A stretch of 64,000 nucleotides of DNA from Yuukianura sp. NJ FZ-2021 (taxonomy: Eukaryota), in assembly GCA_046563655.1 (NCBI GenBank), contig CM102290.1, positions 14,260,001-14,324,000 of the forward strand, in the 5' to 3' direction. The notes beneath the pieces were generated by a model that was not told where the DNA came from, ran no database searches, and saw nothing but the letters and a program-made list of their open reading frames with translations. Below are positions 8,951 to 52,200 of the stretch, piece after piece. Both the position numbers and the translations under genes were made by a program. Positions within the stretch are counted from its first letter, which is position 1; each line of letters starts with the position of its first letter.

Positions 8951-9913
8951 TTTCTGACTAAAGCTTCTACGGTTCTGAGCTTCTAAGAGTATACAAAACA
9001 CTGTGGGCGTGGCTAACTAACAAACTACGTAACGTATAACAATCTCACTCGAAGCAATTCTACTGGACGTCAAAGGTCAATCATCAACTCGGAGGTCAAA
9101 GGTCAACTTGGAGGTCAAGGTCAACACGAATATAGTTTTGTATTTTGGGGGAAAAAGATAATGTCACATTTCACATTTAAAAAAAAAACTTTCACTTAAC
9201 TTTCCGCTGCAAAGAATTTGGAAATTTGCAGGGACATTTTTCAAGTTTGGTGTTCCGTGTTGTTTTTTGGAGAAAAAAATCTTTTTTTGAGAATTTTTCT
9301 AAAAAAACGAAAATTTTAAAAATATTTTATGCCAAATATGTTTTTTTTACAAAACGGAGAGGAAATAGCGGAATGGGGCGAATTGAGACTCGCGAAATTT
9401 GTTTACACTGAACATCAAAAACGGGAGAGAACTTTGTGTGCAAGAATGTTTCATATTTTCAAAAAAAAAATTCTTTTCAATTTTTTTTTTTCAAAATTTC
9501 TGTCGGTGGTATGACCTTGTTCCAGAATCTTGGTAGTAATGAATAAGTTGAGAGGCGGAGCGGAAACTTTGAAAATTAAATGAGACTGTTTCTGCTTCTC
9601 GAGAGCAGCATCACCAGCATCTCCTGTTTTCTCGCTCTTTTGTTAAGCGTCTCAGTGCTAGAAGCCTTTAGTCTAATGACCTCAACTCCCGAGAGGTCAA
9701 CTCTCTCCTTGTGTCGATTTTTGAAAAGACGCTGTTTGAACAAGTTTGGACAAGGATGTTCAAACAGGATTGAGAGAAGAACAAAGTTAAGCGGATTTGG
9801 CCTATTAGTCGGATCGCTGTCCAGCGTCCGTGTTTCTACACTTGTCCTTTGTGTGATCCATTGTTCAGCGGCTAAGTTCTCCTTGGGAGGGGCTGTTACA
9901 AGCATAGATGGGC

Positions 9914-10112
9914 ATCCTCAAAGAGGACGTCCTCAAATCCTCTATCCTCAATCGATTACCGATCCTCAAGTACTCTTCTCCTCTATCCTCACTCGATTTC
10001 TAGTCCTCAAATCTTCAAAACCTCATCCTCTTTGGTATCCCAATCCTTAAAACCTCAAATACTCTATCCTCAATCCCAATAATGTCCTCAAATCCTTAAA
10101 CCTCTATCCTCA
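9914..10112 (+). repeat. Left subterminal (A)TCCTC motif array of the hAT element
   Basis: Many TCCTC/ATCCTCA motifs directly inside the left TIR. Typical position of hAT transposase-binding arrays. Confidence 0.85.
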
Positions 10113-10249
10113 ATTAAGTGAAAATAACTATATATAAAGTTTGGTTCACCAAGTCAATTTTATTTCAGACTAATATTCAATTTAATTAACCAAAAAGCCC
10201 ATAACCATTAAGTCAAGCCTTACCAAAGGGATTCAAACAGTTGTAGCAA

Positions 10250-13101
10250 TTAGGCTGAACAATCGCGATTGTTATTGGAATTTGTGTTAAGCAGATGTTG
10301 GCGTATCATTAACACTTTTTCCAAAAGCCTAACGGTTATCCGAGACCTTCTTGATCTTCCCAAAGCTCCAGCAATGGAAAACAAGCGTTCAACTGAACCG
10401 GATGTAGCTGGAATCACTAAGTACACTGAAGCTAGACGCGCCAATATTGGAAAAGTCTTTTCGTGAGCATCCCAGAAGTGAAGAGGATTCTTAGAGTATG
10501 CCTGTAATGGAAGCTTCAAATATTCGTCTATTTCTACGAATGTGGTATGGGCTTGCGTCCCCGCAATTTCTCCAACGTAGTCAAACATATTTCCTGAGCG
10601 TCTCCGTTTTGGTGCAGGCTCAGCATCAACGGAACAGCCGGACTGCTTATCGCTTTCGTTTGTCCCAGAGCCACACGTCACAATCGTTTCTTCTTCTTTA
10701 AAATTGCGCCGAAGCATTTCCAGTACACTAGCTTCATCCGGTAGCTTTTTACAAACTGTGACTGGCAAGGAGTCGGTTCCTGTTAAAATAAAAAAAATCC
10801 GAGTTAACCTACGCTTAAACAATCGCGATTGTTACTACAAACTTTTAAATGCAGTCGTCTTAATCCTTGGGTCCAGCAAAGTAGCCATGATAAATGACTC
10901 ATCTGAAAAGGCATCGATGGTGACTATATGTCGCCGTTTTCCGTCTTTATGTACAGCTTCCCCTTTGTCCTGATTTGTCGTAAAACGAGTAATAACTGAA
11001 TTAAGGATAGCATCTCTGAATTCCAGTAAGTCTTCGGCCTCGGAAAATTCCTCGTCACATTGTAATTCCACGCACCCTAGAATAAACATAAAGTTAACTT
11101 TCACTATAGCTAACTTCTGCTAAATGTAACTCACTTTTTATGGCACTGAGTAGTCCAAGAATAACTAAAGATGATGTCACACCGTCCGCTTGAATGTCAT
11201 CAGTGAGTTCGGCAAATGGTTCCAAAACGAGAGTCATGAAGCTTATAACCAGTATCTCGTCATCTGTTATATCTTGTGGAATGTTCTTTTTTTGCTTTCC
11301 TTTCACAGCGCGTCTCGCATTTGCTAGCACGCTGTTCACACTTCCAATTACATTAACCTACCAGAATAAAGCAAAGTGATCAATCGCGATCAATTCAGGG
11401 CAATGGAACAATCGCGATTGTTTAGAAGGTGGCATACCTCAGCGCGGTTCTCCCCAATGAAACGTTTCAGACAGTGGTAAAGCGAATTCCATCTGGTTAC
11501 ACAAGGCTTCAGCAATGAAAGTCCGTTGGTACATTTTCGGAGCATTGAGTTCCATTTTGTGCTATGATGAAAGAAATTAACGATACTGTTGATCTTTTTG
11601 ACCGCTCGCTTAACAACTTCACATGTGTTCATTCCATCTTTAATTGCCAGCTGTAGAAGGTGTGCGAGGCAACCGTTACGTTTGAAGTTTTCTTTGACGA
11701 GAAATGGGCTTTGTGTAACCGGATCTTGAATGTTCGGTTCAACGTCTTCCAGCCCAATGTCTAAGGCTTCAAATGAATCGTCGTCGGACAAAATCAAGTA
11801 CTCATCTAGTTCCTCCAGCATCTCATCTTCGATTTCATCAATTTCATCCTCGTCGATTAACTCAATAGAATTTAGCCCAACTTCAAGTTCCGGCATTTTT
11901 AGAGCAGCCAGTACGTTTGCTGCATTGTCGGCTGTGATGGACGCAATCTATTAAAAAACAATCGCGATTGTTATGGTGCAGCTGCATAATTACTGTTAGT
12001 AGGCTGTAGAGACTAATCAAAAATATTACCTGTTCCTGTCTCAGTTTATATATGTCGCCGAGATTCCCTTGAATCATAGTTTTAATATTCTCAGCAGTAT
12101 GAGAATCATTAAAACTTTTAAAAAGAAGAACCTCTTGGAAAATTTTCCAGTTTCTCATGTACCTCAGCTGCACACCAATAACCGATTCCTTCTGCTTGGT
12201 TGACCAAATATCAAAAATGAGATGACAGGATTTTTCAGGTAAGAGAGACACCGTTGATTGGAGGTTTACCAGGATCTGTGTTTAAAACTTTTTTTCAGAA
12301 TGGTAGTAAATTATACGTAACAATCGCGATTGTTAAAAATTGTACTACCTTTCCATGGTCCTGTATAATCTTTCGAGTAACAGTACGCCTGCTGGGAATT
12401 CGAAGTTTTGGGTCCAAAGAGTTTATGAGATTCCGAAATCCAGGCGTGTCGACGATAGGAAATGGGACACTGTCTGTAACAATGAAATGACGCAGATTAT
12501 TTTCAAACGCAAGTTGTTTCACGTCCGTTGACTTGTAGTAGTCAGCGGTACAAGTCGACTGAATCGGAAACGGAATAATTTGGTTAGAATTTTGTTCCGT
12601 TGATCCTGGTTTGTTATGCCGGATGTGCCCCAAGTATTTTTTGTTGACCTCAGGATGTGTCTGGAATTCAGTAAGAAAATATGTTTACAGTCCACAGACG
12701 AAAACTCATCCTAACGTATTTGCCATATAAAACAATCGCGATTGTTTCCTTACCTCCAGATGTCTACTGAAGTTATGACTTCCCCTGCCAATGATTCCTT
12801 TATGGTTTTGTTTGGCTTTGGATTTAACACACTCCCTGCATTTCATCACAACCTCAGCAGTTCCTGTAGTTTTCTTTCCAGTGTATTTGACAAATTCAAA
12901 AAAAGGTTGAAGCGACAAGATCCAGGAAGGGTACTTAAGGTCATTTTGTGTTTCAGCGTCAGGAACACCACCAGTAACTTTCTTGTAACGTAGACGGTTG
13001 ATAACTTTTGCAGATGACGAAGATTCGATTTCTTGTACTTCCTCGTCATTAATCACGACAGGACCAAACTCGAGTGTTGCCTGTTTTAAGTTCGACGACA
13101 T
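10250..13101 (-). CDS. hAT transposase with BED zinc finger, DDE core and C-terminal dimerization domain; 7 exons, ~800 aa, apparently intact
   Basis: Exons 13101-12754, 12660-12349, 12275-12030, 11947-11438, 11357-11135, 11076-10843 and 10779-10250 join through GT-AG introns into 2403 nt without stops. Motifs: BED-like CREC...SHNFSRHLETHP, FDIWS (D1), ITADNAAN (D2), CLAHLLQL (CxxH), TRWNS, LLDPRIK, PLHFW...FPILARLA...IPATSGSVERLFS (E, hATC region). Confidence 0.95.
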
Positions 13102-13245
13102 GTTGTTCACTAACTAATTTAAATTAGATACACATCACTTCGGACTATACTGTTGGCAGTGGCAGCTGATGATACAAAAGAATAATAGTGAAGAGAAGAA
13201 ATAGGATCAAAGCTCATGCTCAACTTTGAAACAACCGCGGTTGTT
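10258..13245. repeat. Dispersed 16-bp palindrome AACAATCGCGATTGTT (6 perfect copies, 1 compensated variant, 1 degenerate copy) inside the hAT element
   Basis: Perfect copies at 10258-10273, 10818-10833, 11407-11422, 11957-11972, 12319-12334 and 12731-12746. Variant AACAACCGCGGTTGTT at 13230-13245. Partial copy at ~11379-11394. Confidence 0.95.
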
Positions 13246-13304
13246 AGCGGGATGTCTCATTTGACTCAATTGGCTAGGAATTGCGAAATTGAGGAGTGCT
13301 CAAA

Positions 13305-13531
13305 TACTCAATCCTCAAGTAAATTTGAATCCTCAACTACTCTAATCCTCTATCCTCACTTCATACTGTATCCTTAAGTACTCAAAACCTCTATCCTCAT
13401 TCAAAGTCCATCCTCAAAACTTCAATCCTCTATACTCTTCCCGGCCATCGGTCCTCAAATCCTCTATACTCAATCCTCATCCAAAATCGTGTCCTCTTTG
13501 AGGATTTCGTCCTCTTTGAGGATTTTTTGAG
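13305..13531 (+). repeat. Right subterminal (A)TCCTC motif array of the hAT element
   Basis: Many ATCCTC/TACTC motifs. Two copies of GTCCTCTTTGAGGATT near the TIR are inverted relative to ATCCTCAAAGAGGAC at the left end. Confidence 0.85.
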
Positions 13532-16500
13532 TGAGGACGCCCATCTATGGTTACAAGGTACACTCACTCCCATTGTATTCTGGGGGCGGGGAGGGAGAGG
13601 GGAAACTGAAACAAGAGTTTCTGAAAGTCTGGAAGAAACTCTGAAAATCTAGCACAACTGAAATTCAATTAAAATCCCAACCAAAATCAACTGAAAATGT
13701 CTATGGGGTAATGTGAGAATCACAAAAAATCTCTCCAGGGTCAACTGAACATCGGTTTGAGGTAAACTGAAACTTTTTCACAAATTTCTGGATAACACTG
13801 AACTATTTTTGCAGACAACTGAAAATGGTTTTGGGGTAAACTGAAACCTTTTCAGAAATTTCTGAATAACTCTGAAATCGTTTTGGGGGAAACAGAGATT
13901 CATCAATTCTGTTTGAGGTATTGTGAGAATCACAGAAAATCTGTCCAAGGTCAAAGGTCAACTGAAAATTGGTTTGGAGAAAACTGAAACTTTTTCAGAA
14001 ATTTCTGAAAAACACTCAAATGTCTCTGCGGCCAACTGAAAATCGGTCGATACACCTCAAAATTCTTGTAGAGTGGACTTCGTTTTGTTTGAATCTTTTG
14101 GAAATGTTTGTGCGAGCAAAGAAGAATGCGTGAGTAGCAGTTTGGCTGGAGTGCGTTCCAGCGGCAACTGGAGAGTTTAAACTAATTTTGAAGCTGGCGC
14201 TGGAAGTGACACTGGATCGAAGTGTCTGTTGGCCCTTCAACTCATGACACAATTGATTTTAATTGCTTCCGTGTGGTCAAATCCTTTCAATTATTGGAAA
14301 AGGAAAAGATCCTTATGACTCTCAACCACAAGCGACTCCAGGCATTTCTGGACTCCAGGCGATGTCCATACTCTCCACTTCTCCAGTTCACTCATCCGAA
14401 AACAACTTAAGCCTCACCGAATTGACCAAAACCCGGGTAGTTCCACTCCAAAACAACTTGACCCAGTTTCATCTAAAGCTTTGAATTACTTTGAATTTGG
14501 TCAATCACTGCTTAGTGGTATTCGGTTTTTGGTAAAACTGAGAAAAACGGAGGCTATGATGCAAAATTTTATTTTTTATAAAAAAATATTCCAGTTTTTC
14601 AACACACGAACTAAAGGCACTGAAATTTAAAAATTTCCCACTAACAAATTTTTAAAAGTTTCCAACTTGTTTTTTTTTTCACTAAATTTGCCATCATTTC
14701 TAAGTGTAAAAAACTTTTTTTAGTGTAAAATTTGCAAATTTAGCAGAAAATTTGTGTTTCGGTCAAATCACAAAAAAATTGTTTATGTATCAGATTTTGG
14801 AGATCAGGAGATTTTAAGTTTCCTTTTTTTTTTGCATGAAATTTATATAAAATTTCTCTTTACATAAAAAGAATTTTGGAAATTGGGGCGATTTGCGAAA
14901 CTAAATAGCTGAAACCGCGACTTCCAAATCCAAAAACTAACTTTAGCCTAATTTAATCTAATGACTAAAATCCTCCAGAAGAACATCTCCAATCTTAATC
15001 GGATCTTCCAGAAATCTAATTTGAATTTTGGAAATTTGTAATTAAAGTGTCCAAAACCTAAAGTCATTTCCGCTTCGAATATTAACTAAAAAGTTAAAAC
15101 GAAGTTATGGAGGGAAACAAGTTTCAAAAAGACGCGCGGATTATGAATTCAAAATTTGGTTTAAGAGCTTCCGTCCACACTTCAAGTCAAGGTATATTAG
15201 TAAATCTTTTCTCTTTAATTGAACTTGAATTTTCCACTTGAAAAAATTTTCAAGTGTTAACACTTAAGTCAAAGCTAAACTTAACTTACACTTGAAAACG
15301 CTTCCTCTTGAAAATGGAGATTAACTTTAGTCACCAACTTTTCCTATGTTTAGCCGCTTAACTCCTCGTTTTTGACAAGTTTCAAAAAAATGTTAAAACA
15401 AATTTCCCTGAAAAATCGGTTCACATTTGACTAAAATTTGACCCTTCTGCCTTTTCCGCCACATTTTTTTTTGTATTTGCTCAAACAAAAACTTTCTTTT
15501 TCTAAAAACTACTTTCAGTTTCAAAAAAAATCTTTTGTGTTCGAAAATCGCACATTTTTTCCAAAAATGACATTCGTGACCTCTCCAATTTGTTATTCTT
15601 TTTTATTGTAACTTTTTCCTTTTGCGTGTTTTTTATTTTCTGTCTTTCTTTCTTTATTTTTCTGTCTGATATTGATCGTTTTCCATTTTTTGTGCAAAGT
15701 GATGCATAAATATGCGACCATTTTGTGAAACAGGGCATTTGCTTTTGACTTTTCGTTGAAAAAAAAACGGGTAGATTCAAAAATACCCGGGTATTGATTC
15801 AGGTACGAGCAAGCCCCGCAACAAAAGTGTATAATTACAACAACTTTCTCCCAGGCTCTGCTTGCTAATAAAACGGAAGTGTTTTCTCCAAAGTGGAAAA
15901 CCTCATGCTAAAAACTACGTTTTTCGAATTTAGTTTCAAACAGCGCGCCAACATCGTTTTTGAATTTTCTCTTGGCGGGAGACGAGACTGCTCTAATAAC
16001 AAAACCTAATTAGGTCCTTGTTCTTAATGTTATGGCATGAACACAGGTGTAACGCGGTACCAAATTTGAAATTTCAAATTTAGAACAATAACTTCCTGCA
16101 ACATGTTTAGAACAATAGCATTTCCTGTGGAATACTTAGGACAATAAGAACTTTGTTGAACAATAATAGTTAACAGTTGAGAAAATTGTGTAAAACCTTG
16201 ACTTTTTGTGAGTCAATTTTCACTTTAAGAATTTTTGAAATGGCGGGAAATCTTTTGAAGTTTGAAATTGACAAATAGAAGAGCAGGAAGAAGATGATGA
16301 TGATGAAAATCTACAGAGCGTGAAACCTAAGGTAAAAAATTTATGAAGCGCAGCGTTTTCAAAGTTCAATCAATCACTTTTCAACTCGCCAAGAAAAAAT
16401 GTGGAATTGTGAATGGCAAGCCTGACACCTTCCTTTCACCTAAAATTTCAAAAATAAAAATTTCAAAAAAAGTAGCTCTGGATTCTCTAAAGTAAAAGTT

Positions 16501-28272: not shown

Positions 28273-31200
28273 TCATTTTTGTGTTAAAATTACACTGAAA
28301 ACTAAAAACAAGCAGAGCTGGAAGTTGATGGCGGAGGAGGTGGGGCTGGAGCCACCATGGTGGGCCGGCGCCCCACCGGATTTAATTCTGCCAGACTCTA
28401 CGCACTTGGTGTAGTACGGTCCCACACAAGCGGAATAAGCAATCACGTGAGCTACATGGGTTTGCTCATGGACGCCAGGGAACAAGTGGGCCATCGGACC
28501 TGTGATTTAAATCACTTTTCAAACTTTTTGTTTAAAACGATAAAATTTTGATTAAAATCGTAAAATATTATGTAACTTGCCATTTGCATAGACTGGTACG
28601 TCCTCACCACCGTGACTCTCGTAGTCCGTCCAAAATCCGGCCAAATGCGGAGTCGTCCGGTTCACTTCGGCCTAAATTCAACCGCGGAAATTTTCAAACT
28701 CACGTAATATTCGAAAACAAAATTTTCGAAATTTTTTTTTGTAAAATTTTCTTAATTTTTTGTTAAGAACTGTACCTCAGTGAGGTTTTTCCAAGTATTG
28801 AGTGTGCTAGAAGAGCTTTTGGGTGTGGCTGAATTAAGGCTGAGGTTGAGTCGGTGGTGCGTGTATCCTGGTCCGTTGATGTAGGACAGTGTTTCATAAT
28901 GGTAACCTTCTGGCGTCACATCACCTAGGCCTAAAATCCATAAAATTTTGAACTTCCCGCCAAAATTTTCTGATTCAAAAACCAAAATCAATAATGCCCT
29001 CCACACACAAAACAATTGTGCCCCAATTTACTCAACCAAAAACAACACAAAACATTGTCAAAAACGTCAAATTTCCATCCTGACTCAAAATTTATCAACA
29101 CAGACAAATTTCCATACCTACCGCAACAATACTTTTCAAGGTTTGTTGACTTTGATTTTCTTTAACAGGTAGGGTAATACCTCATGTTTTTTTGAATTTA
29201 CAAGAAAAAGTGTATTTTCATTTCAGGGCATCGTGGTCATAACGATACAGCCGAATTGTTTAAATTTTGCATGGAATTGGAACTGATTTTTTTTCTCTTT
29301 TTTTTGTCACCAAGCGAGGTAGTACCCAACCTGTTAAAGAAAATTCACTTTTCTTTGTCAAGGAACGTTGAACACGAGAGTTTATTAGAAGTTTTGCGGT
29401 AAATTTTCAAATTTTCCTATTTTTTTTTCAAAATTTCAGATTTCATCGTTTTTACCTGCAATTGGATTACCACGGACAGGGTATCCGTTGATAACAAAAG
29501 CATGAGAATGATCCGCCGTTACGACTATAAGTGTCTCTGCGGCGTTTGTAAGTTGAAGTGCTTTGGCTATCGCTCGGTCAAATGCGGCCATTTCCTCCAT
29601 TGCAATTTCAGCCAAGTTGTCGTGATGCGCATGATCAATTCTAAAAACCAAAAAAGTACCATGTGACCTTTCGTTTTTCAAAAATCAATAAAGTTTCAAA
29701 ACCTCCCGCCTTTTGTGCGTCCTACTGCTGGTTTTTGGCTTAATTGAAAATATGGAACATTACCTTCCGCCTTCTACCTGGAAGAGAGAAATAGAGACGG
29801 AGTGGAGATTAATTTGGAGTGGCAGAGGGGGGTCGTGGGTTCGAGACTCACAATGAGCAAGAAACCGTTGGAGTTTCTGCTAAGAACTTCAATTGCTTTC
29901 GTCGTCATTTCTTCTAAGCTGGGCTCATTCTCTGTTCTGTCTTTGTCGTATGGCAAATGCCCAGGACCAAAAGTACCTTCGTATGGAAATAGCAAGAGTG
30001 AGCATATAACTAAAAACTATGTTTTATGTTCAAAGGAAAGCGGCAAAGTTTGAATTTGAATGTTGGCGCGAACCCAAAAGATAGTCGACGGAGGAGTTGA
30101 CTGCGAGGAGACTCTGTCGGTTGGACACGTAAGAGAACTGACGCTGCTGCTTCTGCTGGAATTCCTTCCACTCTTCGATCAAGTCCTTCCCGTCGCCACG
30201 GAAACAAACGGATGAACTGTTCACTGGAACTGACGCTCGAAGCGTCTGTTCTCCACCACCAAGTATTACCTAAGGTTCAGTTAGTGTAAAGTTAGCTTCG
30301 GCAGTGGAAAAGGTCAATGACCTCTGCAAATTTCGCTTCAAGGTCAATGACCTCCAGAAGTAACGCTCAAGGTCAATGACCTCAAATGCCGATCCTGATG
30401 AATTCCCAGTTACGTTACCGTTCTGATAAAAAAACATGTCTGGCAGACTTGCCTTCCGGCAAGGTTGTTCGAATCAAAATTTTATTTTTTTTAACAGGTT
30501 GTGTCATAACTCCTATTTTAAAAAAAAAAATTCTTTGCTTTGAAATTTTTGTTCGATTTGTTGACCTCGCGCCTTGTAAAGTACATGAGATTGGTCCAAA
30601 ATTGTTTTTTTCTTGAATTTTTAAAAAAAAATCGGAGTTATAACATAACCTGTTAGCGAAATTGTATAAATAGGCGCTATAGCAACCTTGCCTTCGGGCT
30701 AAAATTTTAAATTGAAAAACAGTTTCTGTGCTAGTTGTAACGACTGCTGTTCTCTGAAAAATCGGAACCTTGAGAGCGGGAATGTTTGAAATTCGGTTTA
30801 AAGTTTGAAATGTTTACGTTAATGCTTCTGCCTGGTTCGTCCTCGACCAACTGCCTTGCAATGTCCTTGCAGCCTCCTTTGCGTTCCTCCCGGGGTATTT
30901 TGGAGTCGCATTCCCAGTCTCTGTTCGTACAATGAGCATAGGCAGCAGCAGGCGTCGCATGAGTCACTCGAGTCGTCGTTACGACACCTACATGCACATG
31001 GAAACTGTGACATCAATGGACACTTCAGCACCATCAACGACCCTTAAGTACTCCCACAACCCTTAACTTACTCTAATATGCAGATAAACATAACATATAC
31101 TAAGCCTAACTCTCACTTTGTCTCTTCACACACATAAAGTTCAAAAAAGCATAAGACTGTATGCACACAAAAACGTTGTATGAAACCAAAATTTTGTCAA

Positions 31201-34200
31201 ATTTCCACTCTTTTTTGCATAGCGACCAATTTTTTTCAAATCTTCACATTTTGTTCTAAAGGAATTTTGGTATAACCATAAGCTTCATATGAGAAGTTCA
31301 CGATTCCAAAATTTTGTCGAAATTCAATTTTGTCGAAATTCAATTTTGTCGAAATTCAACTTTGTCTAAATTCAATTTTGCCGAAACTTGAAATTGTGTT
31401 ACCGGTTGATTTGCCGGCGTCGATTCCCCATGCCATGAGCCCATCTACGCTAGCTCTGCGTTGTGCGTCGGCGCGACAGACGTTGAATGTGGCCGTGCCG
31501 TCGAGCCCCACGGTGTAGTAGTTGGCCTTGACACCGCTGAAGAGCGCAGTCGCTGTGGCAGCAGAGTCTGGCACTTGGCGATCCACGTTGTACGTCTGGA
31601 AACAGGATTAAAACGGCTTAGTTTGTAAACTTAAGCTGAGACAAGTAAAGGCTTAGCCGTAGCGGTGGCACGGTTCCACGGTGCCACGGTGTGACGACTA
31701 ACATTGTAACGGCGTGCTACCTAATCTATCTTTAGAGTGAATGACGATGATTGATTACCATTCTACGAAGTTCACGTTTGGCACAACACAAAGAAATAAA
31801 CGAAAACCAATTCAACTTTTCCCGCGCTTTGTCCAAAAAAAAAAGCAACGAGCCAGAAAAGTTTCGTTTTTTTAGAAAACGTTTTTTTTGTTTTTTGAAA
31901 AAATTAAAAATTCATTTGGCCTGCCACATGAATGTCGAAACTAATTAATTTCCAACTTTTCTGTTTTTTATAACTCAATGCACATTCCACTGGAAATGGC
32001 GGCTAATTTGACTTTCTGAGTTCAAATTAAGTACAAACCGCAAACATCAAAAACATTCAAAGTTTTTCAACATTTTTAAAGCCAGCGTAAAATTCTTTTT
32101 CTCAAAGGAAAGTTGAAAAAAGTTGTTACATAAGTGAGAATTGAATACAACTTTTTGAAAACTTTTTCCTTTTTCTAATTTTAGCCTTTCAGGAAATTAT
32201 AACGTTATTCTCAGGCACAGAAATCGTGTCGGTAAAAAAAATTTCGGAATTCATTTTAGTCAAAATTTTGAGATTTTTTAATATTTCTTATCACGTTCAC
32301 TCTACTGACTTCATGTCTCACGTCATTATCACACGTGGCATGACATTGGAAGAGTCCAAAAATTCAAAATTTCGAACTTTCCAGATTGTAAAGTCCCCGA
32401 AATTTAAGAATTTTAGAAATTCTTCAAATTTTGTTTTGTTGTTGTAACAAATTTGGGAGTTTATTGAACCATAAAAGTAAATAAGTTTATGGCTCCATTT
32501 TCCACTTTCTTCGTAATTTTTTCCGTTTCATTGAAAAAAGACGAGAAAAGCGGAGGGGAGACAATAGGTCGTGCTAAATAATAAATTTGTTGGCAAAATA
32601 CGGCTCTTTGAGGAAGCTTTTGTCACAAAAAGTAAGCGTGACGGGCGGGAAACTTTAAACCCCCCACCCCTCCCCATCTCTTCCATTTCAATGTCTGTCT
32701 CAAAAACGTAAAAGAGAAAGCCTATTTGGTTAAGGTTGAGAGAAAGCATTAGGAAAGCTTTTAGTTTCGCTGTCAATAATACTATGGTCTTAAGTGAGCG
32801 ACTTAAGGTGCGGACACAGAGCCCTTCAAGGCCCCCCCCCCCCATAAAAAGTGTCGAAAGCGTCGAAAGTAGAGGGGGGGGGACTTGAAGGGGTCCTAAA
32901 ACCTAAGGGTAATGTCACACTCTTGAGCCTGAAAACGTCTTATTTCACACTTTTGCTAAATCGCTGGACATTTCATCGCAATTTTTTAAAATGGTTACCC
33001 TAATTCCCGGCGTTTAGTTTCACGAGTCTCAAAAAATCTCGGAAAAAAATAATCGCGTAAAGGTGAAAGTTAAAATTTCGAAATTGTGAGCTTTGGGTAA
33101 AATGAAACAAATTAAAAAAAAGTAATTTTGCACTAAAAAAATTTATTAAGATTTTAACAGGCAACTTTGGAATACTGCTTGTTTTTCTTTCAAACATCAA
33201 ATTGCAAACGATTATTTGCACAACATTTTTTTTTGAAAGTATTTTTGAAATTGAAAATCAAATTGAAACGCGCATGTTTCCAATTATTCAAAAAGTATTC
33301 AAAACCTAATGATTTGTTGACAAACATTTTGAGAAAAGGAGAAAGTAAATGAGAAATTGAGTAGAAAGTGAAACGCTTAAGTTTACTTTCAATTTCCAAA
33401 GCTTCAAATTGAATAAACTACACACTTTTTTCAAATTGAGTTTCAGAATTTCAAAATCGACTTTTTTTTTTAAATTGAAAAAATAACTTCCAAGGCCAAT
33501 TTTCAAATTTATATGATTGACCCTGCAACGGACTAAACTTGGTTGAAAATGGAAGTTTAAGCAAAAAAGTTTTTCAAATTCAAAATAAATTCAAAACTCC
33601 CCAAAAATCTCACACACTTTTCCGTGAATTGAAAAACGTTGCTCCAAGGGAAGACTTTAAAAAAAAATCATCTTTTTAGGAACAAACTTTATGTTAGAAA
33701 AACTTTAGCCTGTTTCTGTCATCACTTTCACTTTCACCAGCTTTTTACTTTCCCCCGTGGCAAACTTGCAAAAGTTGCACAAGTGACCTCTTAACACATG
33801 CATTTGCGTACAGAGGTCACCGAGGTCAACTATTAAAGCTACGCTAGCCCGCCGTAGTCAAGAAAAGGTCAAAGGTCATCGTCGGTCAAAAAGTTCAAAA
33901 GCTCCCTCCTGACTTCAAAGGAAAGTTGCAGAGTTTTTTTTTCATATTTTGAACGTTATTTTAAACAAAAACTTTCTTTTTTCAAAAAGTTATGACCAGC
34001 ACATTTTTCTTGGAGTAGGAGCAGTAGGATTTGAACCCCCAGCAGGTTTTTGGTGATGGATCTTGTAGATGATATCCAAGAACACGAAAGTTGACAAGAT
34101 GAAAAGGAAAGTTTTAGAGAAAAGGAAAAAAGAGCGCCAGGTTTTAAAATGGAAAAGAAAGGAAATCTCTGGAGTGGTATATCTTATTTAGACTTTCTTT

Positions 34201-42800: not shown

Positions 42801-45400
42801 TAAATGAATCTACCAAAAATTCAAATCTTCCCGCCTTTTTTACAAGCAGTTGATGGTAACGAATGTAATGTAATCAGGCATGTTCGTAAACAAGGAACTC
42901 AATTTTGTAAACGTGATTCTTACTGAAAAAAAAAACCAATCTTATGAAAAACTGATTTTGAAAATTTTGGAAACTAAAAAATTTGAGTTGTGCAAAGTGT
43001 AAGACTTTGTATATTTGCAAATCGCGAGTTTTGCAAATTGGACGAATTTTGTAGTTTGGTAGATTTGCAGAAACTCTCTAATGAAATTTCATGAATTCGT
43101 TGTTTTTTTCTTAAAAAGTAGCAAAGTGATTCAAATTACCTTGGCTTTGACTAGATACGGCAATGTAAAGTACCCAATTCCAGCAAACATGTCAACAACA
43201 ACTTGGTCAACACAATTGAGCTTGGCGATCCGCAACTTTTCTACCGTATTTCCAGGTGAGTACATGCATTTCACAAGATCCCAACTATATCTAAACAAAG
43301 AAAACAAAAAACTTCAACACCTTTTCATTCAACATGAATTGCTTCAACAAATATGTAAATTACTTTACTCCGTTTTCAGTTTTTGACACCATTGTAGATC
43401 CATCTCCGGGCAGTAGAATTTCAACATTAGGTCTGCGTATTCCCTGACTCACAGGACCACCTACGCGCGCCAGGCGCGAAACTTTGAAAATCTGTGCCAC
43501 TTCGCCCCAGAGTTTATTTCCTGTAAAACATTTTCACAATTTAACATGCAACGCAGCCTAATGCCCGTATACATAATGACGGTTCACCCGTAACCTACGG
43601 ATCAGGATTTGGTGAGACCGATCCGGGGGTCAGGATCACACTAATCCGTGAACGGTATACATAATATAATCTTGAGCGGTGGATTTGTAAATCCGGTTCA
43701 CCTGAACGTGATCATCGGATTACTCATTTTTACATGCCACATTTAAATACTTCAACAACAATGTATTATGTTGATTAAAAATGTGACAAGTTTAATGCTC
43801 CTTTTATTTTCAGGTGGCAAAGTTTTCAAACTTTCTATAACACAACACCATTTTTGTTGTGTTTTAACGAAATAGTTAATGATTCAATTAATTTCTGAAC
43901 AAAATAGGAAACTAATGGGGCAAAATGCGGCCATGCTGTGCATATACTGCGCAAGCACTGCGCAAGTACTGCGCAAGCACTAGGCACTGCGCAAGCACTA
44001 GGCACTGCGCACTGCGCAAGTACTGCGCAAGTACTGCGCAAGTACTGCGCAAGCACTGCGCAAGCACTGCGCAAGTACTGCGCACTGCGCAAGTACTGCG
44101 CACTGCGCAAGTACTGCGCACTGCGCAAGCACTGCTCACTGCGCACTGCGCACTGCGCAAGCACTGCGCACTGCGCAAGCACTGCGCAAGTACTGCGCAC
44201 TGCGCAAGCACTGCGCACTGCGCAAGCACTGCGCACTGCGCAAGCACTGCGCAAGTACTGCGCAAGCACTGCGCACTGCGCAAGTACTGCGCACTGCGCA
44301 AGCACTGCGCACTGCGCAGTTCTATAAATTCTAAAAGTTTTTTCTGACATTTATAACGCAAACTCCTTAATAAAACTGAACGCTTAACTCGTGGGAAAAG
44401 AATATAACTAAACAAAAATTAAAATAATTCCAGTTGAATCAAGTGGTGAACCTACCCCTATACCAGGGTCACGAATTTTGATCCCGATCATAGTGATCCG
44501 GTTTACTTTTTTGTATTATGTATACGAATATAACCCTGAGCGAGGGATCAAACAAATTTTTGATCCGAGGTTTACGTGAGCGGGTCACCGATGACCTCGA
44601 GACTCATTATGTATAGGGATCAGGGTGATCGGTTCAACTTTTCATGATCGGATCACCGTGATCCGGCATTATCTATACGAGCATAACTAACAAAAAACAT
44701 GAAAAATGATCAACATTGTTTAGGTAAACAGATATTTGGTCAACATCCAAAAGTTCAACAAACGTTATAAGCCTGGAGGCTACTACAGGAGGACATTGGT
44801 GACCTAATTACGTGCTGTTGTAATTATTAATTCAGGAACGGAGTCCCACTGTGCTGGAAGGGCGGATTGAGAATACTTTGGAAGCACAAGGCAGTACTTT
44901 AACTTTGAATTTCCCTCATTCCTTAACCTTTAGTGCTCCAGCACGTAACTCAACTAGTAACTTTTGACAGAAGGCAGGAAGCATGTCGCCACATGAATAA
45001 TAATTAATCCCACTACTTCAGAAGTGCTAAAACATCTCTCTCTTTCTCCACTTACATCCTGGATCCATTTTCTCCAGAAGGCACCGTCTTCCTAATCAAG
45101 TTAGTCTGGATTCTCTTATAAAACTAAAAGTTGTGCAAGGGGAGCGGCCGATTGTCATTAAAGCACACTAGGAAATGTTCTCAAATCAAAAAGTTTATTG
45201 CTAATTCTTACCACATTTCCGCCAGTTGTCGTGTACAAAACTTTGAGCTGGAAATAGGATCAAGTCGGAGTAGGAGTTCCAGCCACGCGGAAGTTCAATT
45301 TCTAAGCCATCGTTCCACAGCCCCTCTGCAACCATCACCTCCTTGATTCTTTGGTGTAACTTCTCAGTCAACTTCGGAACCATTATCAGTGTCCTTGCAA
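39831..45400 (-). CDS. TYW2: tRNA wybutosine-synthesizing protein 2 homolog (TYW2/TRMT12, Met-10+-like SAM-dependent aminocarboxypropyl transferase); 5' end uncertain
   Basis: Exons 45400-45212, 43520-43364, 43290-43140, 40372-40256 and 40190-39831 splice in frame. Motifs: ENGVKYSWDLVKCMYSPGNTVEKLRIA, VVVDMFAGIGYFTLPYL, AIDLNPDAVEAL, GDNR, VNLGYVPS, GGILRVHGN, KVKSFAPRVDHLVVD. First in-frame ATG seen is 45383; upstream exons could not be resolved. Confidence 0.88.
41100..41270. repeat. CT-rich low-complexity microsatellite in a TYW2 intron
   Basis: Repeated CTCTTTTT/CCCTCT motifs. Explains the spurious Phe/Ser and Lys/Arg ORFs. Confidence 0.85.
43562..44683. mobile_element. Non-autonomous TIR element with TAA TSD (PIF/Harbinger-like) in a TYW2 intron, carrying a TGCGCA array
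   Basis: TIRs TGCCCGTATACATAATG and CATTATCTATACGAGCA (15/17), TAA on both sides, GATC/CCGG-rich subterminal regions. Confidence 0.7.
43946..44320. repeat. Tandem array of ACTGCGCA(AG[C/T]) 7- and 11-bp units
   Basis: About 375 bp of GCACTGCGCAA/GTACTGCGCAA/CACTGCG units. Source of four overlapping repetitive ORFs. Confidence 0.97.
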
Positions 45401-49211: not shown

Positions 49212-52200
49212 ATGGAGAGACAGGGAACAGTCGTTCTGTTCTTCCTGCTCTTCATTGTCGCATCAACAGTCGGCACCAAAAAAGCAACTCCGACATCATC
49301 TTCATCTTCTGCGGCAACAAAAAATGCCGAACGGCGCGAAAGTTCCAATTCGGACTCGTTTTCAATGCAACCGAGTTTTTCTTATCAGTATCACACTAAC
49401 GACAATGAAGACAACAGTGGTTCTGGTAAATTTGTTTTTTTTTATTGCAGTAAACTTCGGTTTTTCAAAATTCGAGTTTTCATTTTTTCCCGGTTTTTCT
49501 TCAGTAGAGAGCAAATTAGCACTTTTTCAAAAAAATTTCGTTCAGCTCCATTTCCCTCTCCCGGCATTTGAAAAGTGTTTGAAATGTCATCTCAAGACGT
49601 TTCGGAGGAAAAAGGGAAGAAAATTTTTGAAAAAGTCGCTTTTGATTTTTTCTTTTGATTTTGGGAGCCAAAACGTGAAATAAATCTTGACGTTGCCTGA
49701 ATCGATTTCTCTCTACTTATCCTTGTCCAACTTTTCTCTCTTTTATGACACAAGTCGCTTTTACTACTTCTTGGATAAGAACGTTATGAATGGAGGGAGG
49801 AGGAAGAAAGAAGGTTTGAATGTAAGCGCGTCCTTTTGAATCTTCCCTCCAAATCTGATCAGTTTGAATCTTCTTCTGAAGTGGAAGAAATACTAAAGTT
49901 GAAAGGAAGTTTTGGATAAGCCTAACGGCAAAGCGGCTTTTCCAAATTGAAAGAGGAACGGCGCCAAAACTGTTAATTTCAAAGCAGTTTCAAAAGTTTT
50001 CCATTTTGGGATTACGATTTTCAAATTTTGATGTTTTTAGGAAATTTGAATGGTCAAAGTAGCGGACTGGAAGGAACAAATACTGGAAGACAAGCCGTAG
50101 TGCAACAGAGGGACTCTTTTGCTGCTCCTATGGATTCATACTATGCACCCCCACCACCCACTTACGGACCACCCCCGCCACCCACTTACGGACCACCCCC
50201 ACCACCCACTTACGGACCACCCCCCACCCCCATCTCAACTTATGGCCCCCCACCAGCTGATACATACAGTCCCCCGCCAGCGCCACCTATGGACTCCTAT
50301 GCTCCGCCCCCCGACTATGTATACCCCATGCATGCATACGGTCCCCCGGAGCCATCTTACGGACCACCCCCTGCAGTATATGGCCCACCAGAACCTTCAT
50401 ATGGCCCACCCCCTGCAGTATATGGCCCACCAGAACCTTCATATGGCCCACCCCCTGCAGTATATGGCCCGCCCCCTTCAGTATATGGCCCACCGGAACC
50501 TTCTTATGGCCCACCCCCTCCAGAACCCTCTTATGGCCCGCCGCCTCCAGTATATGGCCCGCCAGAACCCTCTTATGGCCCACCCCCTGCAGTATATGGC
50601 CCACCGGAACCTTCATATGGCCCACCGCCTCAGGCATATGGCCCTCCAATGCCATCTTACGGACCACCAAAACCGTCTTATGGTTACGGTGGATATGGAG
50701 GGGGAGGAGTTGGTGGAGGAGGAGCCGGGGGAGGGGGTGGTGGAGCAGGAGGTGGAGAGGGTGGGAGTGGCGCCCTCCCACCACCCCCTACGGCCCCCGC
50801 AGTCAAGGGATCTATCGACTACGTCCTAATTCCTCTCATTTTGATTGGAATTGCTGGCCCCATTTTTGTGGTTCTGTACGTCGTGCTCGGGGCATTCGAA
50901 TCTCGGTTGGCTCCGGTCCTCGTGCGCTCCATGCCTTGGTCTTCTGTCATTACCAATTCATGGGAGACTCTCAAGGTAAATTTTGAGCGGGAACCTTTAA
51001 AATTTTAAAGTTTTCAAAAATTTGGTCTCTTTTTGTATTCACAGCCAGGAGCAGACTCACTCCTGGCCTCTGTCTCTCGTGCTCTCGACAATCAACAGTG
51101 CATGGAACGTGCCCTCTGCCACATTGGCAACTTCTGTCATGACCTTGGTCTCTCCGACGGCGGATTTCTACAGAGGTAAAGTAGGGGGGGGGGGGTACAA
51201 AAAAGAGAGGGAAAGTTTAAATTGAATTACAACTTGAAAGGAGATTGGAATTGGTGAGTGTAATGCTAGCCACTCAAAATGAGACCAAAAGTTAACGAGA
51301 AAAGGTCACGACGACGTTGAGCGGGAAAAAAAGAACTTTTTTTTGAAAACATCGTAGTATTTCAAATTATTGATCTCGCAGAAATTTTGTGAAAGACGAA
51401 GGTATTCAATTTTTTGAAAAAATTTAGGAGAAAGTGGAGAAGCTTCCAAGATTATGATTACAAAGAAATTGAAAAAAAAACGCCAAGATTTCAAAACGGA
51501 GGAGGAAAAGTTTAAATGTTGAAAATGTTTTACAGTGGATTCTCTAAATAAGGGACAGGAGCTCCTCCTCTTTCTCACTTTCACTCGAAGTCGCGGTACC
51601 GTAAAGTTTTAATTTTGGAGGGAACGTATGTTTCAGTTTATCGGCTTATTTTTTACGATTGTTTTTTTTTTTTGGTTAATTTTTTTTTGGTGCGAAACAA
51701 AAGTAATTAGATAATTAAATGGAATTAACTAATATTAATATATATATATTATATATATATATCTGCGCACAACCTGCGCAACAGCGCAAAACCTGCGCAA
51801 CAGCGCAAAACCTGCGCAACTGCGCACTGCATTTAATATATTATATTATATAACCTGTTTAATAAGGGTGACATTCACAACGTAATTTGCATATAATATA
51901 CCATATAATATTGATTAGTATATAGATATCACATATAATTAGCATTAATATTTGAATATTATGTATATTAATATTAATTATACTCTGAACTTCGAAACAG
52001 GAAATTTTGGTGTTCCTAGCCTTAAATTCCATATAGCTGACAGTTTACCAGAAATCTTACGGTACTGGGGGAGGCGTCTACTACCAATCCTCCAATCGTG
52101 ATTTTTTCCCTTATTTAGAGAATCCACTGTATTTTAAAATGTTTAATAATTTTCCATTTTTTTTTGTTTTGCAAAAACCGCCAAATTTATGAGATTCAAA

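Follow-up and report, generated by a model that had tools for sequence, protein, structure and literature searches.

A conserved array of 16-base palindromes in the introns, leader and tail of a hAT transposase gene, with a possible role in the control of its expression

The subterminal transposase-binding repeats of Ac and Hermes lie at most about 300 bp from the element ends, are not palindromic, and are needed in cis. The 3′ stem-loop of histone mRNA is a protein-bound element of 16 nt, made of a 6-bp stem and a 4-base loop, and shows occasional compensatory changes. Dimer sites of the Sox/HMG type have a consensus with a CAA-containing core, and Smaug-type loops read CNGG. To our knowledge, conserved non-coding elements within transposon genes are almost unstudied. 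As described in the available part of one report, BED proteins derived from hAT elements bind CG-centred palindromes and self-associate via their hATC domain; their recognition sites are hDRE, TGTCG(C/T)GA(C/T)A, for ZBED1/hDREF, and DRE, TATCGATA, for Drosophila DREF, and the BED zinc finger follows the pattern CX2CXnHX3-5[H/C] (PMC7471704). For the P element, the accessible portion of its source places internal THAP-binding sites next to the ends, and reports that intron 3 is retained tissue-specifically via an exonic silencer bound by PSI and hrp48 (PMC7776569). Finally, template switching at quasipalindromes is described, in the sections at hand, as keeping or restoring the symmetry of short inverted repeats, which gives mirrored double changes (PMC7202029, PMC8604942).

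The window (the whole stretch of 64,000 nucleotides analysed here) contains a complete hAT transposon with the following features, strand being given where it was assigned.

9903..13549, minus strand: complete hAT transposon, 3,647 bp (TIRs, 8-bp TSD and empty-site joint)
13550..13557: TSD on the 5′ side of the element, CTTGTAAC
9895..9902: TSD on the 3′ side of the element, CTTGTAAC on the minus strand
13533..13549, minus strand: 5′ TIR, 17 nt, CATAGATGGGCGTCCTC, matching the other end at 16/17 positions
9903..9919, minus strand: 3′ TIR, 17 nt
13288..13525, minus strand: 5′ subterminal GAGGA/TCCTC repeat array (repeat analysis)
9921..10115, minus strand: 3′ subterminal GAGGA/TCCTC repeat array (repeat analysis)
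12754..13101, minus strand: exon 1, aa 1-116, with a CX2C...H zinc-finger pattern
12349..12660, minus strand: exon 2
12030..12275, minus strand: exon 3
11438..11947, minus strand: exon 4, with an Atlas lead to the ZBED1 RNase-like helical domain
11135..11357, minus strand: exon 5
10843..11076, minus strand: exon 6
10250..10779, minus strand: exon 7, hAT C-terminal dimerisation domain and stop codon
10159..10164, minus strand: AATAAA, possible poly(A) signal about 90 nt past the stop

Two hallmarks of hAT elements were found, namely an 8-bp TSD and short TIRs (17 nt, 16/17 complementary), and the empty-site joint 9894->13550, with 8 letters in common, was present in 4/4 sequencing-read runs. 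The transposase gene was rebuilt on the minus strand with its ATG at 13101, its stop at 10252-10250 and an open frame of 800 aa. Its six predicted introns (93, 73, 82, 80, 58 and 63 nt), placed from reading frame, splice signals and homology, all have GT..AG borders. The C-terminal dimerisation domain was recognised by Pfam (PF05699, E = 2.5e-14, 53.2 bits, the cut-off being 21.4), and the exon 7 product matched PDB chains of the Hermes transposase at E of about 3e-6. Exons 2-6, each searched alone, gave no Pfam match. For the RNase-H-like core, the Atlas lead had a score of 0.90, and the exons are conserved in relatives. Pfam found no BED domain in exon 1 at E <= 0.1; C88, C91 and H114 of the finger pattern are invariant in 4/4 aligned sequences, and the next His of the putative finger is encoded in exon 2, so that the finger is split by intron 1. 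Among 92 ORFs of the surrounding host DNA, Pfam recognised two alkaline-phosphatase exons only, and a tRNA search of the window gave no match; the Atlas pointed weakly to arthropods, and cluster look-ups yielded generic names and no taxon.

A whole-window count found six exact copies of the 16-mer AACAATCGCGATTGTT and one copy with two mismatches, AACAACCGCGGTTGTT, whose two changes mirror each other. They are listed here with related sequences; L001 and similar numbers designate related loci introduced below.

13230..13245: upstream palindrome, variant AACAACCGCGGTTGTT; the AACAAC/GTTGTT arms are also found at the upstream site of L003
12731..12746: intron 1 palindrome (intron 12661-12753); orthologous L001 site 15/16
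12319..12334: intron 2 palindrome (intron 12276-12348)
11957..11972: intron 3 palindrome (intron 11948-12029), 9 nt ahead of the 3′ splice site; L001 16/16
11407..11422: intron 4 palindrome (intron 11358-11437); L001 16/16
11377..11390: partial second copy TGATCAATCGCGAT in intron 4, whose RNA folds onto the full copy (z = -2.27)
11090..11101: 12-bp dyad AAAGTTAACTTT in intron 5 (intron 11077-11134)
10818..10833: intron 6 palindrome (intron 10780-10842); L001 15/16
10258..10273: tail palindrome in the last codons (NNRDC); L001 16/16

All 7 copies lie inside the element, against 0.02 expected per window, and 7 copies were reached in 0/100 shuffles. The 8-mer ATCGCGAT occurs 7 times within the element and 0 times across the remaining ~60 kb of the window. 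Five exact copies are in introns 1, 2, 3, 4 and 6; the sixth is coding and specifies NNRDC, 7 codons ahead of the stop, and the variant is placed 129 nt upstream of the ATG. With random placement between ATG and stop, at least 5 of 6 sites would fall in introns with P = 5e-4. The centre is CGCG at 7/7 sites. Successive sites are 560, 589, 550, 362, 412 and 499 bp apart. The sequence-only reading of the locus had reported this arrangement, with spacings of 362-589 bp tiling the element, the 16-mer confined to the element, a distinct dyad in intron 5 (58 nt) as the sole intron lacking it, introns otherwise unrelated, and separate TCCTC subterminal arrays; our recount agrees on every one of these, the 16-mer being the sole sequence that the introns have in common. 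The intron 5 dyad may be a centre-less remnant of a site with AACGTT arms that is kept in intron 5 of L002-L004. No difference was seen at the intron 6 palindrome in copies about 3% diverged, and among the 40 of 132 read differences listed (to 11593) none affected the palindromes at 10258, 10818 and 11407. A protein 38% identical to the transposase, P0018, also ends in ...NNRDC.

Twenty related hAT loci were taken from metagenomes by protein similarity, L001 and L003-L008 sharing one sample prefix (one metagenome). An array of the same kind was found in 6 of the 20, in the same places, i.e. leader, introns and end of the coding sequence. The transposases of these six are about 37-62% identical to that of the window, and their exons 59-68% identical at the DNA level. 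They carry 6 (L001), 4 (L002), 9 (L003), 7 (L004), 6 (L006) and 5 (L007) sites. The unit has a 7+2+7 organisation, in which the outer AAC/GTT and the inner C/G are invariant and the middle arm bases are variable but mirrored. Perfect 7+2+7 palindromes numbered 6 in L001, 2 in L002, 11 in L003, 6 in L004 and 6 in L006, for 0.03-0.43 expected, and 0-1 in each of the remaining 15 loci. Site positions are orthologous (introns 1, 2, 3, 4, (5) and 6, and the tail of the CDS). Outside introns, the window and L003 have upstream sites, the window and L001-L004 are occupied in the CDS tail, and in L003 the downstream region is occupied as well. Intron sites lie +4 to +24 from the 5′ splice site, and the intron 3 site is close to the 3′ site. 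In L001, intron 5 is a GTGAG...AG intron read through in frame, according to the DNA alignment. The 3′ end of this locus has the same GAGGA/TCCTC array as the 3′ end of the window element. Locus L005 counts against our preferred reading below: it is about as close to the window element as L002-L004 (45% identity versus 43-46%) and shares the introns, yet has no array. In the more distant hAT element L009, aa 164-470 are read through without extra sequence. A FastTree tree of 12 elements was poorly resolved, with support of 0.11-0.64 at key nodes; closeness is given here as pairwise identity, and no claim of gain or loss is based on the tree. A search for further relatives in genome contigs and viral contigs found none. 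A control scan for the motif in viral contigs gave singletons only, with a second site within 2 kb in 0/80 motif-seeded loci.

Alignment of relatives, put forward in the sequence-only reading as a check, showed palindromes conserved and the rest of the introns diverged. Between the window and L001, the five aligned sites are identical at 78/80 bases, compared to 59.2% for exons and 42.8% for the rest of introns. Between L003 and L004, identity is 96/98 in the arms, 7/14 in the centre, 48.3% in the rest of introns and 67.8% in exons. The arms are thus better conserved than exons, and drift at the two central bases is comparable to that of introns (L003/L004). Pairing of the arms was analysed on 44 sites, pre-filtered for at least 5/6 paired arm positions: 98.1% of 308 cells were paired, and 35 cells had changed on both sides, involving 5/7 pairs. 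None of 500 shuffles scored as high, and slid controls gave 28-45%. This pairing is not an artefact of selection, as unfiltered 16-mers starting with AAC in DNA of the family have a bimodal distribution (62 with 7/7 pairs, 14 with 6 and 14 with 5, n=1,115); in 14 other hAT loci, 0/1,747 such 16-mers had 7/7 pairs. Nine of the 308 arm cells are not Watson-Crick, including 3 G.T and 3 A.C or C.A. No G.U pair occurs among 273 arm cells outside L007, hence no sign of an RNA-type tolerance to wobble or of a preferred arm strand.

Arms that deviate from the consensus are kept site by site: AACAAC upstream (window and L003), AACAGT in introns 2 and 3, AACATT in intron 4, and AACGTT in intron 5 of L002-L004. 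Over the 7 sites shared by L003 and L004, arm positions 4-6 differ at 0/42 bases, compared to 7/14 for the centre. Such site-by-site states are predicted by a pairing constraint, and not by additive recognition of half-sites. The centre is uniform within an element and different between elements (CGCG, CTAG, or CGCG with asymmetric flanks), which fits a reader encoded by the element. It is self-complementary at 7/7 sites in the window (CGCG), 6/6 in L006 (CTAG) and 4/6 in L001 (CGCG); in these elements and L007 the centre itself is conserved and self-complementary, L007 having an asymmetric centre in both orientations. In L002-L004 it reads CNNG, with NN free. The 16 centres that are not self-complementary all have a single orientation relative to the gene, the reverse complement being never seen, for which we estimate a probability of ~1/64 given roughly 12 independent events.

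Deletion derivatives devoid of any internal site were 10-40 times deeper than the interior of the element in four read runs, one of which (X4) had 5/30 bins without coverage. Since copies without internal sites are abundant, mobility does not require the array in cis, and it is unlikely to take part in transposition as such. Its beneficiary is probably the transposase gene. The main deletion joints, 10191->12954 and 9957->13332, are not at palindromes; another, 10262->13115, falls within the tail palindrome and has a filler containing AACAAT. Among the 24 of 82 loose ends listed, 7 lie at most 7 nt from the edge of a palindrome (10278, 10279, 10280, 12339, 13225, 13246 and 13249).

The retention of matching palindromes at equivalent positions in distant relatives points to a conserved control signal, and sustains the earlier suggestion of a real, selected array in non-coding slots of the transposase gene. 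Our preferred reading, with a probability of about 0.4, is that the 16-mers are a selected cis-acting array of the transposase gene of the autonomous element, outside the DNA substrate of transposition, and that they would fold back and be held by a protein that feeds back on expression, probably the BED-finger transposase of the element itself. Wherever coding constraint is lacking, one unit would be present: in the leader, in every old intron, and in the tail at the C-terminus or the 3′ UTR. The arms would be read while paired, in a small hairpin formed either by the nascent transcript or by DNA during transient unwinding; within this reading, we put RNA at slightly better than even odds, and single-stranded or extruded DNA at slightly less than even. 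The hairpin would be held by a sequence-specific protein, most likely the transposase dimerising via its hAT C-terminal domain, and the bound protein would in turn affect the output of transposase mRNA (splicing, elongation or stability), thereby throttling the element. Autoregulation through the BED domain of the element, already raised from the sequence, may apply. The idea of RNA hairpins, of the same origin, gains from the mirrored, compensatory arm changes and suffers from the marginal thermodynamics of the hairpin: the isolated form is worth only -1.3 to -1.8 kcal/mol as RNA and -2.7 as DNA, and intron folds were no better than shuffles in 5 of 6 cases (z = -0.14, -0.98, +1.51, -1.30 and -0.67), intron 4 alone standing out through its partial second copy. 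Rfam, at gathering scores, gave 0 matches in the window. Among the signs of a structured RNA, compensatory changes were therefore found, and a fold more stable than shuffled sequences and membership of an Rfam family were not. The lack of any sign of wobble tolerance or of strand preference in the arms also weighs against folding back, as does the conserved self-complementary centre of the window, L001, L006 and L007, superfluous in a hairpin loop. A more specific version of our proposal, which we consider quite unlikely, is that the old introns of the clade are retained as bearers of a hairpin "barcode", one stem-loop per intron plus leader and message end, which the zinc-finger region of the transposase would recognise on its own nascent pre-mRNA, blocking or delaying splicing and so limiting its own output.

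The main rival is a plain operator of duplex DNA, somewhat unlikely in our view, on which a homodimer (the transposase through BED finger and hATC, or a truncated product) would sit on double-stranded palindromes and regulate transcription or chromatin of the gene body, the mirrored changes resulting from quasipalindrome template switching. The full two-fold symmetry of the window, L006 and L001 sites, centre included, suits such an operator, as do the L007 centre in both orientations, the strict Watson-Crick symmetry outside L007 and the marginal free energy of the hairpin. The inner 10 bases, AATCGCGATT, have the abutting half-site geometry and TCGCGA core of the ZBED1 site, and ZBED1 self-associates through hATC, as stated in the available part of PMC7471704; likewise, the accessible sections of PMC7202029 and PMC8604942 are consistent with arms being homogenised by template switching at imperfect inverted repeats. 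However, additive half-site recognition gives no reason for site-specific states at arm positions 4-6 when other states work elsewhere, template switching alone allows mirrored drift, yet none was seen at these positions between L003 and L004, the centre is strand-biased, and Pfam recognised no BED domain in exon 1 at E <= 0.1. Recognition by a host transcription factor licensing or silencing the element, whether a Sox/HMG dimer, a DREF/ZBED1-like factor or a reader of the CGCG element, has scant probability. The AACAAT arms resemble HMG-box sites, and sites are present in gene body and leader. The TCGCGA core recalls the ZBED1 site (PMC7471704) and the CGCG element (PMC6192621), as far as the available parts of these sources describe them. 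Against this, the centre differs between elements even in one metagenome, the mirrored changes are left unexplained, and the ~60 kb of host DNA around the element in the window do not contain the motif. Because centre bases are free in L002-L004 and CTAG in L006, the elements have no one host motif in common, and a CGCG-specific reader (ZBED1-like or methylation-sensing), as envisaged in the sequence-only reading, does not hold as a general principle. A palindrome of the ZBED1/DREF type was rejected since its essential central hexamer TCG(C/T)GA, found at the 6 exact window sites and 4/6 L001 sites, is not kept; the upstream variant is centred on CCGCGG. The Sox/HMG dimer site, also suggested earlier, was abandoned since the arms AACAGT, AACATT and AACGTT, conserved at introns 2-5 of L002-L004, are without the CAA core. 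Centres reading CGCG, CCCG, CTCG, CATG or CTAG do not fit Smaug-type loops.

It is improbable that the palindromes are relics of intron birth, i.e. that an introner-like, palindrome-bearing insert created introns repeatedly and the palindrome was kept for splicing. There is indeed one site per old intron, the intron-rich structure and the array coincide in the window, L001-L004, L006 and L007, L009 lacks extra sequence, and invasive intronic elements with inverted repeats are described in a dinoflagellate in the part of PMC7789003 available; but sites also exist outside introns (upstream, CDS tail and downstream), the introns share nothing else, there are no repeats at their borders, the distance to splice sites varies, and L005 has introns without sites. 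Introner-like or MITE-derived introns were discarded in particular, as near-identical introns, terminal repeats and target duplications at the borders were not found. Very improbable, too, are junctions of recombination or repair, the palindromes being points of template switching or re-annealing in gap repair after excision. The loose ends near palindrome edges and the joint inside the tail palindrome would agree with it, but the loose-end rows listed are not independent, the main joints are elsewhere, identical sites in one element favour harmful out-of-register switches, and mirrored arm evolution gets no reason. An excision footprint or target duplication does not apply, the two halves being inverted and not direct. 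Chance, or a neutral by-product of recent duplication in one copy, has nothing in its favour beyond the first sighting in a single copy; its probability is negligible, and it is refuted by the counts (7 seen versus 0.02 expected), conservation of the array in six relatives with such divergent exons, and the control loci.

Neither literature searches nor Rfam yielded a description of such an array, in line with the sequence-only reading, which had known of none. Every known kind tested failed a defining feature; hence we regard the architecture as new. The novelty appears to reside in architecture and evolutionary signature and not in a demonstrated mechanism, the control signal being seemingly of an undescribed kind and its exact job a proposal only. 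A 16-base element is here held tighter than coding exons across transposases just 37-62% identical. If the array is an autoregulatory operator or a hairpin set, it would be a new mechanism of self-limitation of a DNA transposon and a regulatory module both compact and portable, and would help to explain why the introns of transposons persist. Should the splicing version be true, it would give eukaryotic cut-and-paste transposons their first autoregulatory loop between protein and RNA, with introns persisting as holders of a signal impossible in coding sequence. The array further offers a clean natural experiment on whether mirrored palindrome changes come from selection for pairing or from template-switch mutation, and the 7+2+7 unit is a diagnostic marker for annotation of this hAT clade, separating autonomous copies from deletion derivatives.

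Compared to the ZBED1/DREF sites, as presented in the portion of the source available, the palindrome is likewise short and CG-centred, its inner 10 bases in the window share TCGCGA and abutting half-sites, and the presumed reader has an encoded BED-type finger (as a pattern only) and a hATC domain. Those sites, however, are host promoter elements of domesticated proteins, single or few, whereas here 6-9 sites tile the gene of an active transposon, each spans 16 bp with an extra invariant AAC/GTT, the CG core is lost in relatives and the arms evolve by mirrored changes. With the P element, again as far as its available source goes, the likeness of a eukaryotic DNA transposon whose transposase output is set by cis elements tied to its own introns would exist only if feedback acts on splicing. 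The P system involves one exonic, non-palindromic element, one intron and host-protein readers, unlike the repeated palindrome found clade-wide in every old intron, the leader and the tail. As with the subterminal repeats of Ac and Hermes, many short motifs are repeated within one hAT element, but the palindromes are present only between leader and stop, are missing from mobile deletion copies, and coexist with separate GAGGA/TCCTC repeats. Quasipalindrome template switching is a mutational process, not a function, and leaves unexplained the conservation above that of exons and the site-specific arm states. Finally, the histone stem-loop is likewise 16 nt long, with a stem that is too weak to matter unless its protein is bound and with positions in the stem that are sequence-specific; it has no sequence likeness to the units described here, which are present in many, mostly intronic copies per predicted transcript and for which Rfam is blank.

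The complete hAT transposon lies at 9903-13549 of the window, on the minus strand, and its features are listed below.

Terminal inverted repeats: 17 nt each, 16/17 complementary
Subterminal arrays: GAGGA/TCCTC
Target duplication: 8 bp, CTTGTAAC
13101, minus strand: transposase ATG of the rebuilt gene model
Six introns: 93, 73, 82, 80, 58 and 63 nt, all GT..AG
10252-10250, minus strand: transposase stop of the rebuilt gene model
10258, 10818, 11407, 11957, 12319 and 12731: six exact copies of the palindrome AACAATCGCGATTGTT
13230: AACAACCGCGGTTGTT, a single variant copy with two mirrored changes relative to AACAATCGCGATTGTT

The rebuilt product is 800 aa long, its introns being placed by frame, splice signals and homology only. 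The last exon encodes a hAT dimerisation domain (PF05699, E = 2.5e-14 in Pfam) and matches the Hermes transposase (E about 3e-6). In exon 1, a CX2C...H pattern was invariant in all four relatives aligned, and Pfam called no BED domain there. Directly upstream of the 5' end of the element, at 13600-14100, there is a repeat, tandem or dispersed, with many TTTCAG...TTTCTGAAAAA units and a 74-nt period at 13742-13885; it probably belongs to a different repeat family that was the target of the hAT insertion.

Five of the exact palindromes lie in introns, and the sixth codes for NNRDC shortly before the stop; under random placement, at least five of six sites fall in introns with P = 5e-4. Seven sites were seen for 0.02 expected, a number reached in none of 100 shuffles. 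No further match to AACAATCGCGATTGTT with up to 2 mismatches occurs in the 64-kb window, and the core ATCGCGAT is present seven times within the element and never outside it. The sequence-only reading had reported the positions, the variant, the intron placement, the NNRDC tail and the confinement to the element, and every one of these details checks out. The finding is confirmed, in a stronger form than the one first given.

Elsewhere in the window, two ORF pieces on the minus strand at 30418-31607 correspond to an alkaline phosphatase (PF00245, E = 1e-16 and 5e-13); no other host gene was recognisable in the 92 ORFs scanned. For one of its exons, the closest Atlas clusters are mostly arthropod, a weak lead. 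A 343-codon open frame at 49977-51008, with proline-, tyrosine- and glycine-rich repeats of 21/42/63-nt periods, had no Pfam match. At 43946-44318, an 11/18-nt unit (ACTGCGCAAGC...) forms a 370-bp array in which several frames are open, and a shorter related array lies at 51763-51826.

Searched exhaustively against proteins (E up to 0.001), the last exon returned 6,262 relatives, the closest being 63% identical over a fragment. P0018, a relative with 38% identity, has ...NNRDC as its C-terminus, which is the translation of the palindrome. The last exon was then aligned with 25 hits (A1). With this alignment, 112 candidate stretches of metagenome DNA were retrieved, from which 20 loci (numbered L001 onwards) were confirmed; six of them carry arrays.

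Array-bearing relatives (identity to the window element over shared columns; sites; type)
L001: 62%; 6 sites; as in the window
L002: 43-46%; 4 sites; CNNG centres
L003: 43-46%; 9 sites; CNNG centres
L004: 43-46%; 7 sites; CNNG centres
L006: 37%; 6 sites; [AT]ACAA[GA]CTAG[CT]TTGT[AT]
L007: 38%; 5 sites; 5-bp mirrored arms around ACGCGC, in either orientation

Perfect palindromes of two 7-base arms around two bases (7+2+7) numbered 6 in L001, 2 in L002, 11 in L003, 6 in L004 and 6 in L006, for 0.03-0.43 expected, and 0-1 in each of the other 15 loci. By tblastn and DNA alignments, the sites of the relatives stand at the positions seen in the window: directly after exon 1, in introns 2, 3, 4 and 6, and in the CDS tail. 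L002-L004 have an additional site in intron 5, and L003 one further site upstream and one downstream. The GAGGA subterminal array is common to L001 and the window element. Exon 1 of L004 is interrupted by an in-frame stop (L004:250-441), so this copy is defective; six of its seven palindromes are perfect, the intron-2 site having one arm mismatch. In a control, 80 viral-collection loci seeded on AACAATCNNGATTGTT (306 kb in total) all lacked another family-type site within 2 kb.

Some other repeats were noticed in these loci. L001:2719-2734, in the coding last exon, is an extra AAC...GTT 7+2+7 palindrome, AACTTGCCAGCAAGTT, with no window counterpart, and may be due to chance. Two introns of the hAT relative L005 (2372-2389 and 2940-2957) open with the same 18-nt motif, GTATTAAT[AG]AAAAT[TG]ACT, an imperfect dyad that may be a decayed or alternative form of the array signal. 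L008, a more distantly related hAT, contains a non-palindromic, CTGACGACTCCT-like 12-mer at four places (230, 1619, 2170 and 2645), three of them about 500 bp apart within the gene; this may be a comparable internal array, or else a coding repeat.

The sequence-only reading had proposed as a check that the palindrome be kept in related hATs while the rest of each intron diverges, and this is what was observed in two comparisons. Between the window and L001, identity was 78/80 in the palindromes (five aligning sites, the sixth being shifted), compared to 42.8% in the rest of the introns and 59.2% in exons. Between L003 and L004, 96 of 98 arm bases (14 per site) were identical and only 7 of the 14 central bases, with 48.3% in the rest of the introns and 67.8% in exons. 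Because the arms are kept and the two central bases drift, the unit is 7+2+7. Positions A2, C3, C7, G10, G14 and T15 show little or no variation, the bases in mid-arm vary, and the centre is free. We concluded, from a comparison that covers seven elements only and in which some sites are not independent, that the array is a clade-wide set of selectively maintained self-complementary elements in non-coding slots of the transposase gene. An array produced by chance can practically be discounted.

Changes in the arms are mirrored. Over 44 aligned sites, preselected by a filter of at least 5/6 pairs, 98.1% of the 308 cells formed by the seven arm pairs were paired, and both sides had changed in 35 cells, at five of the seven arm pairs. 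The observed pairing, double-change count and covariation score were reached by none of 500 shuffles, and slid controls paired at 28-45%. Unfiltered counts gave the same answer: of the 1,115 16-mers of family DNA that begin with AAC, both strands counted, 62 had 7/7 pairs, 14 had 6 and 14 had 5, and none of 1,747 in 14 other loci had 7/7. Non-consensus arms are tied to a given site and common to several elements: the upstream site has AACAAC in both the window and L003; intron 2 has AACAGT-type arms in L001, L003 and L004, as does intron 3 in L003 and L004; and in L002-L004, intron 4 has AACATT and intron 5 AACGTT. The dyad AAAGTTAACTTT in window intron 5 may be a centre-less remnant of the latter site.

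Four public DNA runs from two organisms were compared with the element. They contain copies about 3% different from it (84 differences over 2,705 bases in one contig). The empty-site joint 9894->13550, with 8 shared letters, was found in all four runs and both organisms, so the insertion is polymorphic. The ends of the element (9903-10191 and 12954-13549) were 10-40 times deeper than the interior, and joints 10191->12954 (filler TAACCTAA), 9957->13332 and others correspond to high-copy, MITE-like internal-deletion derivatives. The window element is thus young, with deletion offspring. The 10191->12954 derivative keeps the upstream palindrome alone and the 9957->13332 derivative keeps none; as these are mobile, internal palindromes are not needed in cis for mobilisation. 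Among the 40 of 132 differences listed (places up to 11593), eight fell in introns 4, 5 and 6 and none in a palindrome, which is weak on its own (P about 0.25 by estimate); one, at 10817, directly adjoins the palindrome. Seven of the 24 loose ends listed (82 in all) lie at most 7 nt from a palindrome edge (10278, 10279, 10280, 12339, 13225, 13246 and 13249), and the deletion joint 10262->13115 falls within the tail palindrome. It may be that breakpoints between variants of the family fall preferentially at the palindromes; that these are recombination junctions is very unlikely.

Our main reading, with a probability of about 0.4, is that the palindromes are protein-bound fold-back elements: a protein would hold the arms folded back, and the bound elements would feed back on transposase expression. 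The paired-arm form is favoured by the mirrored changes, and by the confinement of every site between leader and 3' UTR. It is also favoured by the fact that none of 42 site-specific middle-arm bases differs between L003 and L004 at their seven shared sites, where half of the centre bases do; these arm bases are under purifying selection. Mirrored changes can arise without selection through template switching at quasipalindromes (PMC7202029, PMC8604942), but this leaves the site-specific conservation unexplained. A further argument is the strand bias of the centres, since for 16 non-self-complementary centres (CC, TC, GT, TG, TT and AG on the sense strand) the reverse complements were never seen; the chance of this is estimated at about 1/64 for some 12 independent events, and transcription-coupled mutation bias is another possible cause. 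Alternatively, the palindromes could be a duplex operator for a dimer, which we consider somewhat less probable. The single hairpin is weak (-1.3 to -1.8 kcal/mol as RNA, -2.7 as DNA), two copies could pair as a 16-bp duplex (-22 kcal/mol), five of the six introns fold no better than shuffles, and outside L007 no G.U is seen in 273 arm cells. The window, L001, L006 and L007 moreover have a conserved, self-complementary centre, and the asymmetric L007 centre occurs in both orientations.

As to the reader of the sites, centres are uniform inside each element and vary from one element to another: the window (7/7), L001 (4/6) and L007 (5/5) have CGCG, L006 (6/6) has CTAG, and L002-L004 have a mixture of CNNG centres. 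This suggests a reader encoded by the element itself and not a single host factor, and sites for host factors appear quite improbable. L005, 45% identical to the window and about as near as L002-L004, has the same introns and no array, so the array can be lost; an intron-birth relic needed for splicing seems improbable as well.

Rfam had no match in the window. Full-text literature searches returned no account of a palindrome array in hAT transposase introns, in line with the sequence-only reading, which knew of none, and since each known kind tested lacks a defining feature, we rate the architecture as new in kind. According to the relevant passages of PMC7471704, the hAT-derived protein ZBED1 binds a CG-centred palindrome and self-associates via its hATC domain; the TCGCGA core of the ZBED1 site also lies within the inner 10 bases of the window palindrome, and the window transposase likewise has a dimerisation domain. 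That a DNA transposon can gate its transposase by intron-linked cis elements is described for the P element in parts of PMC7776569.
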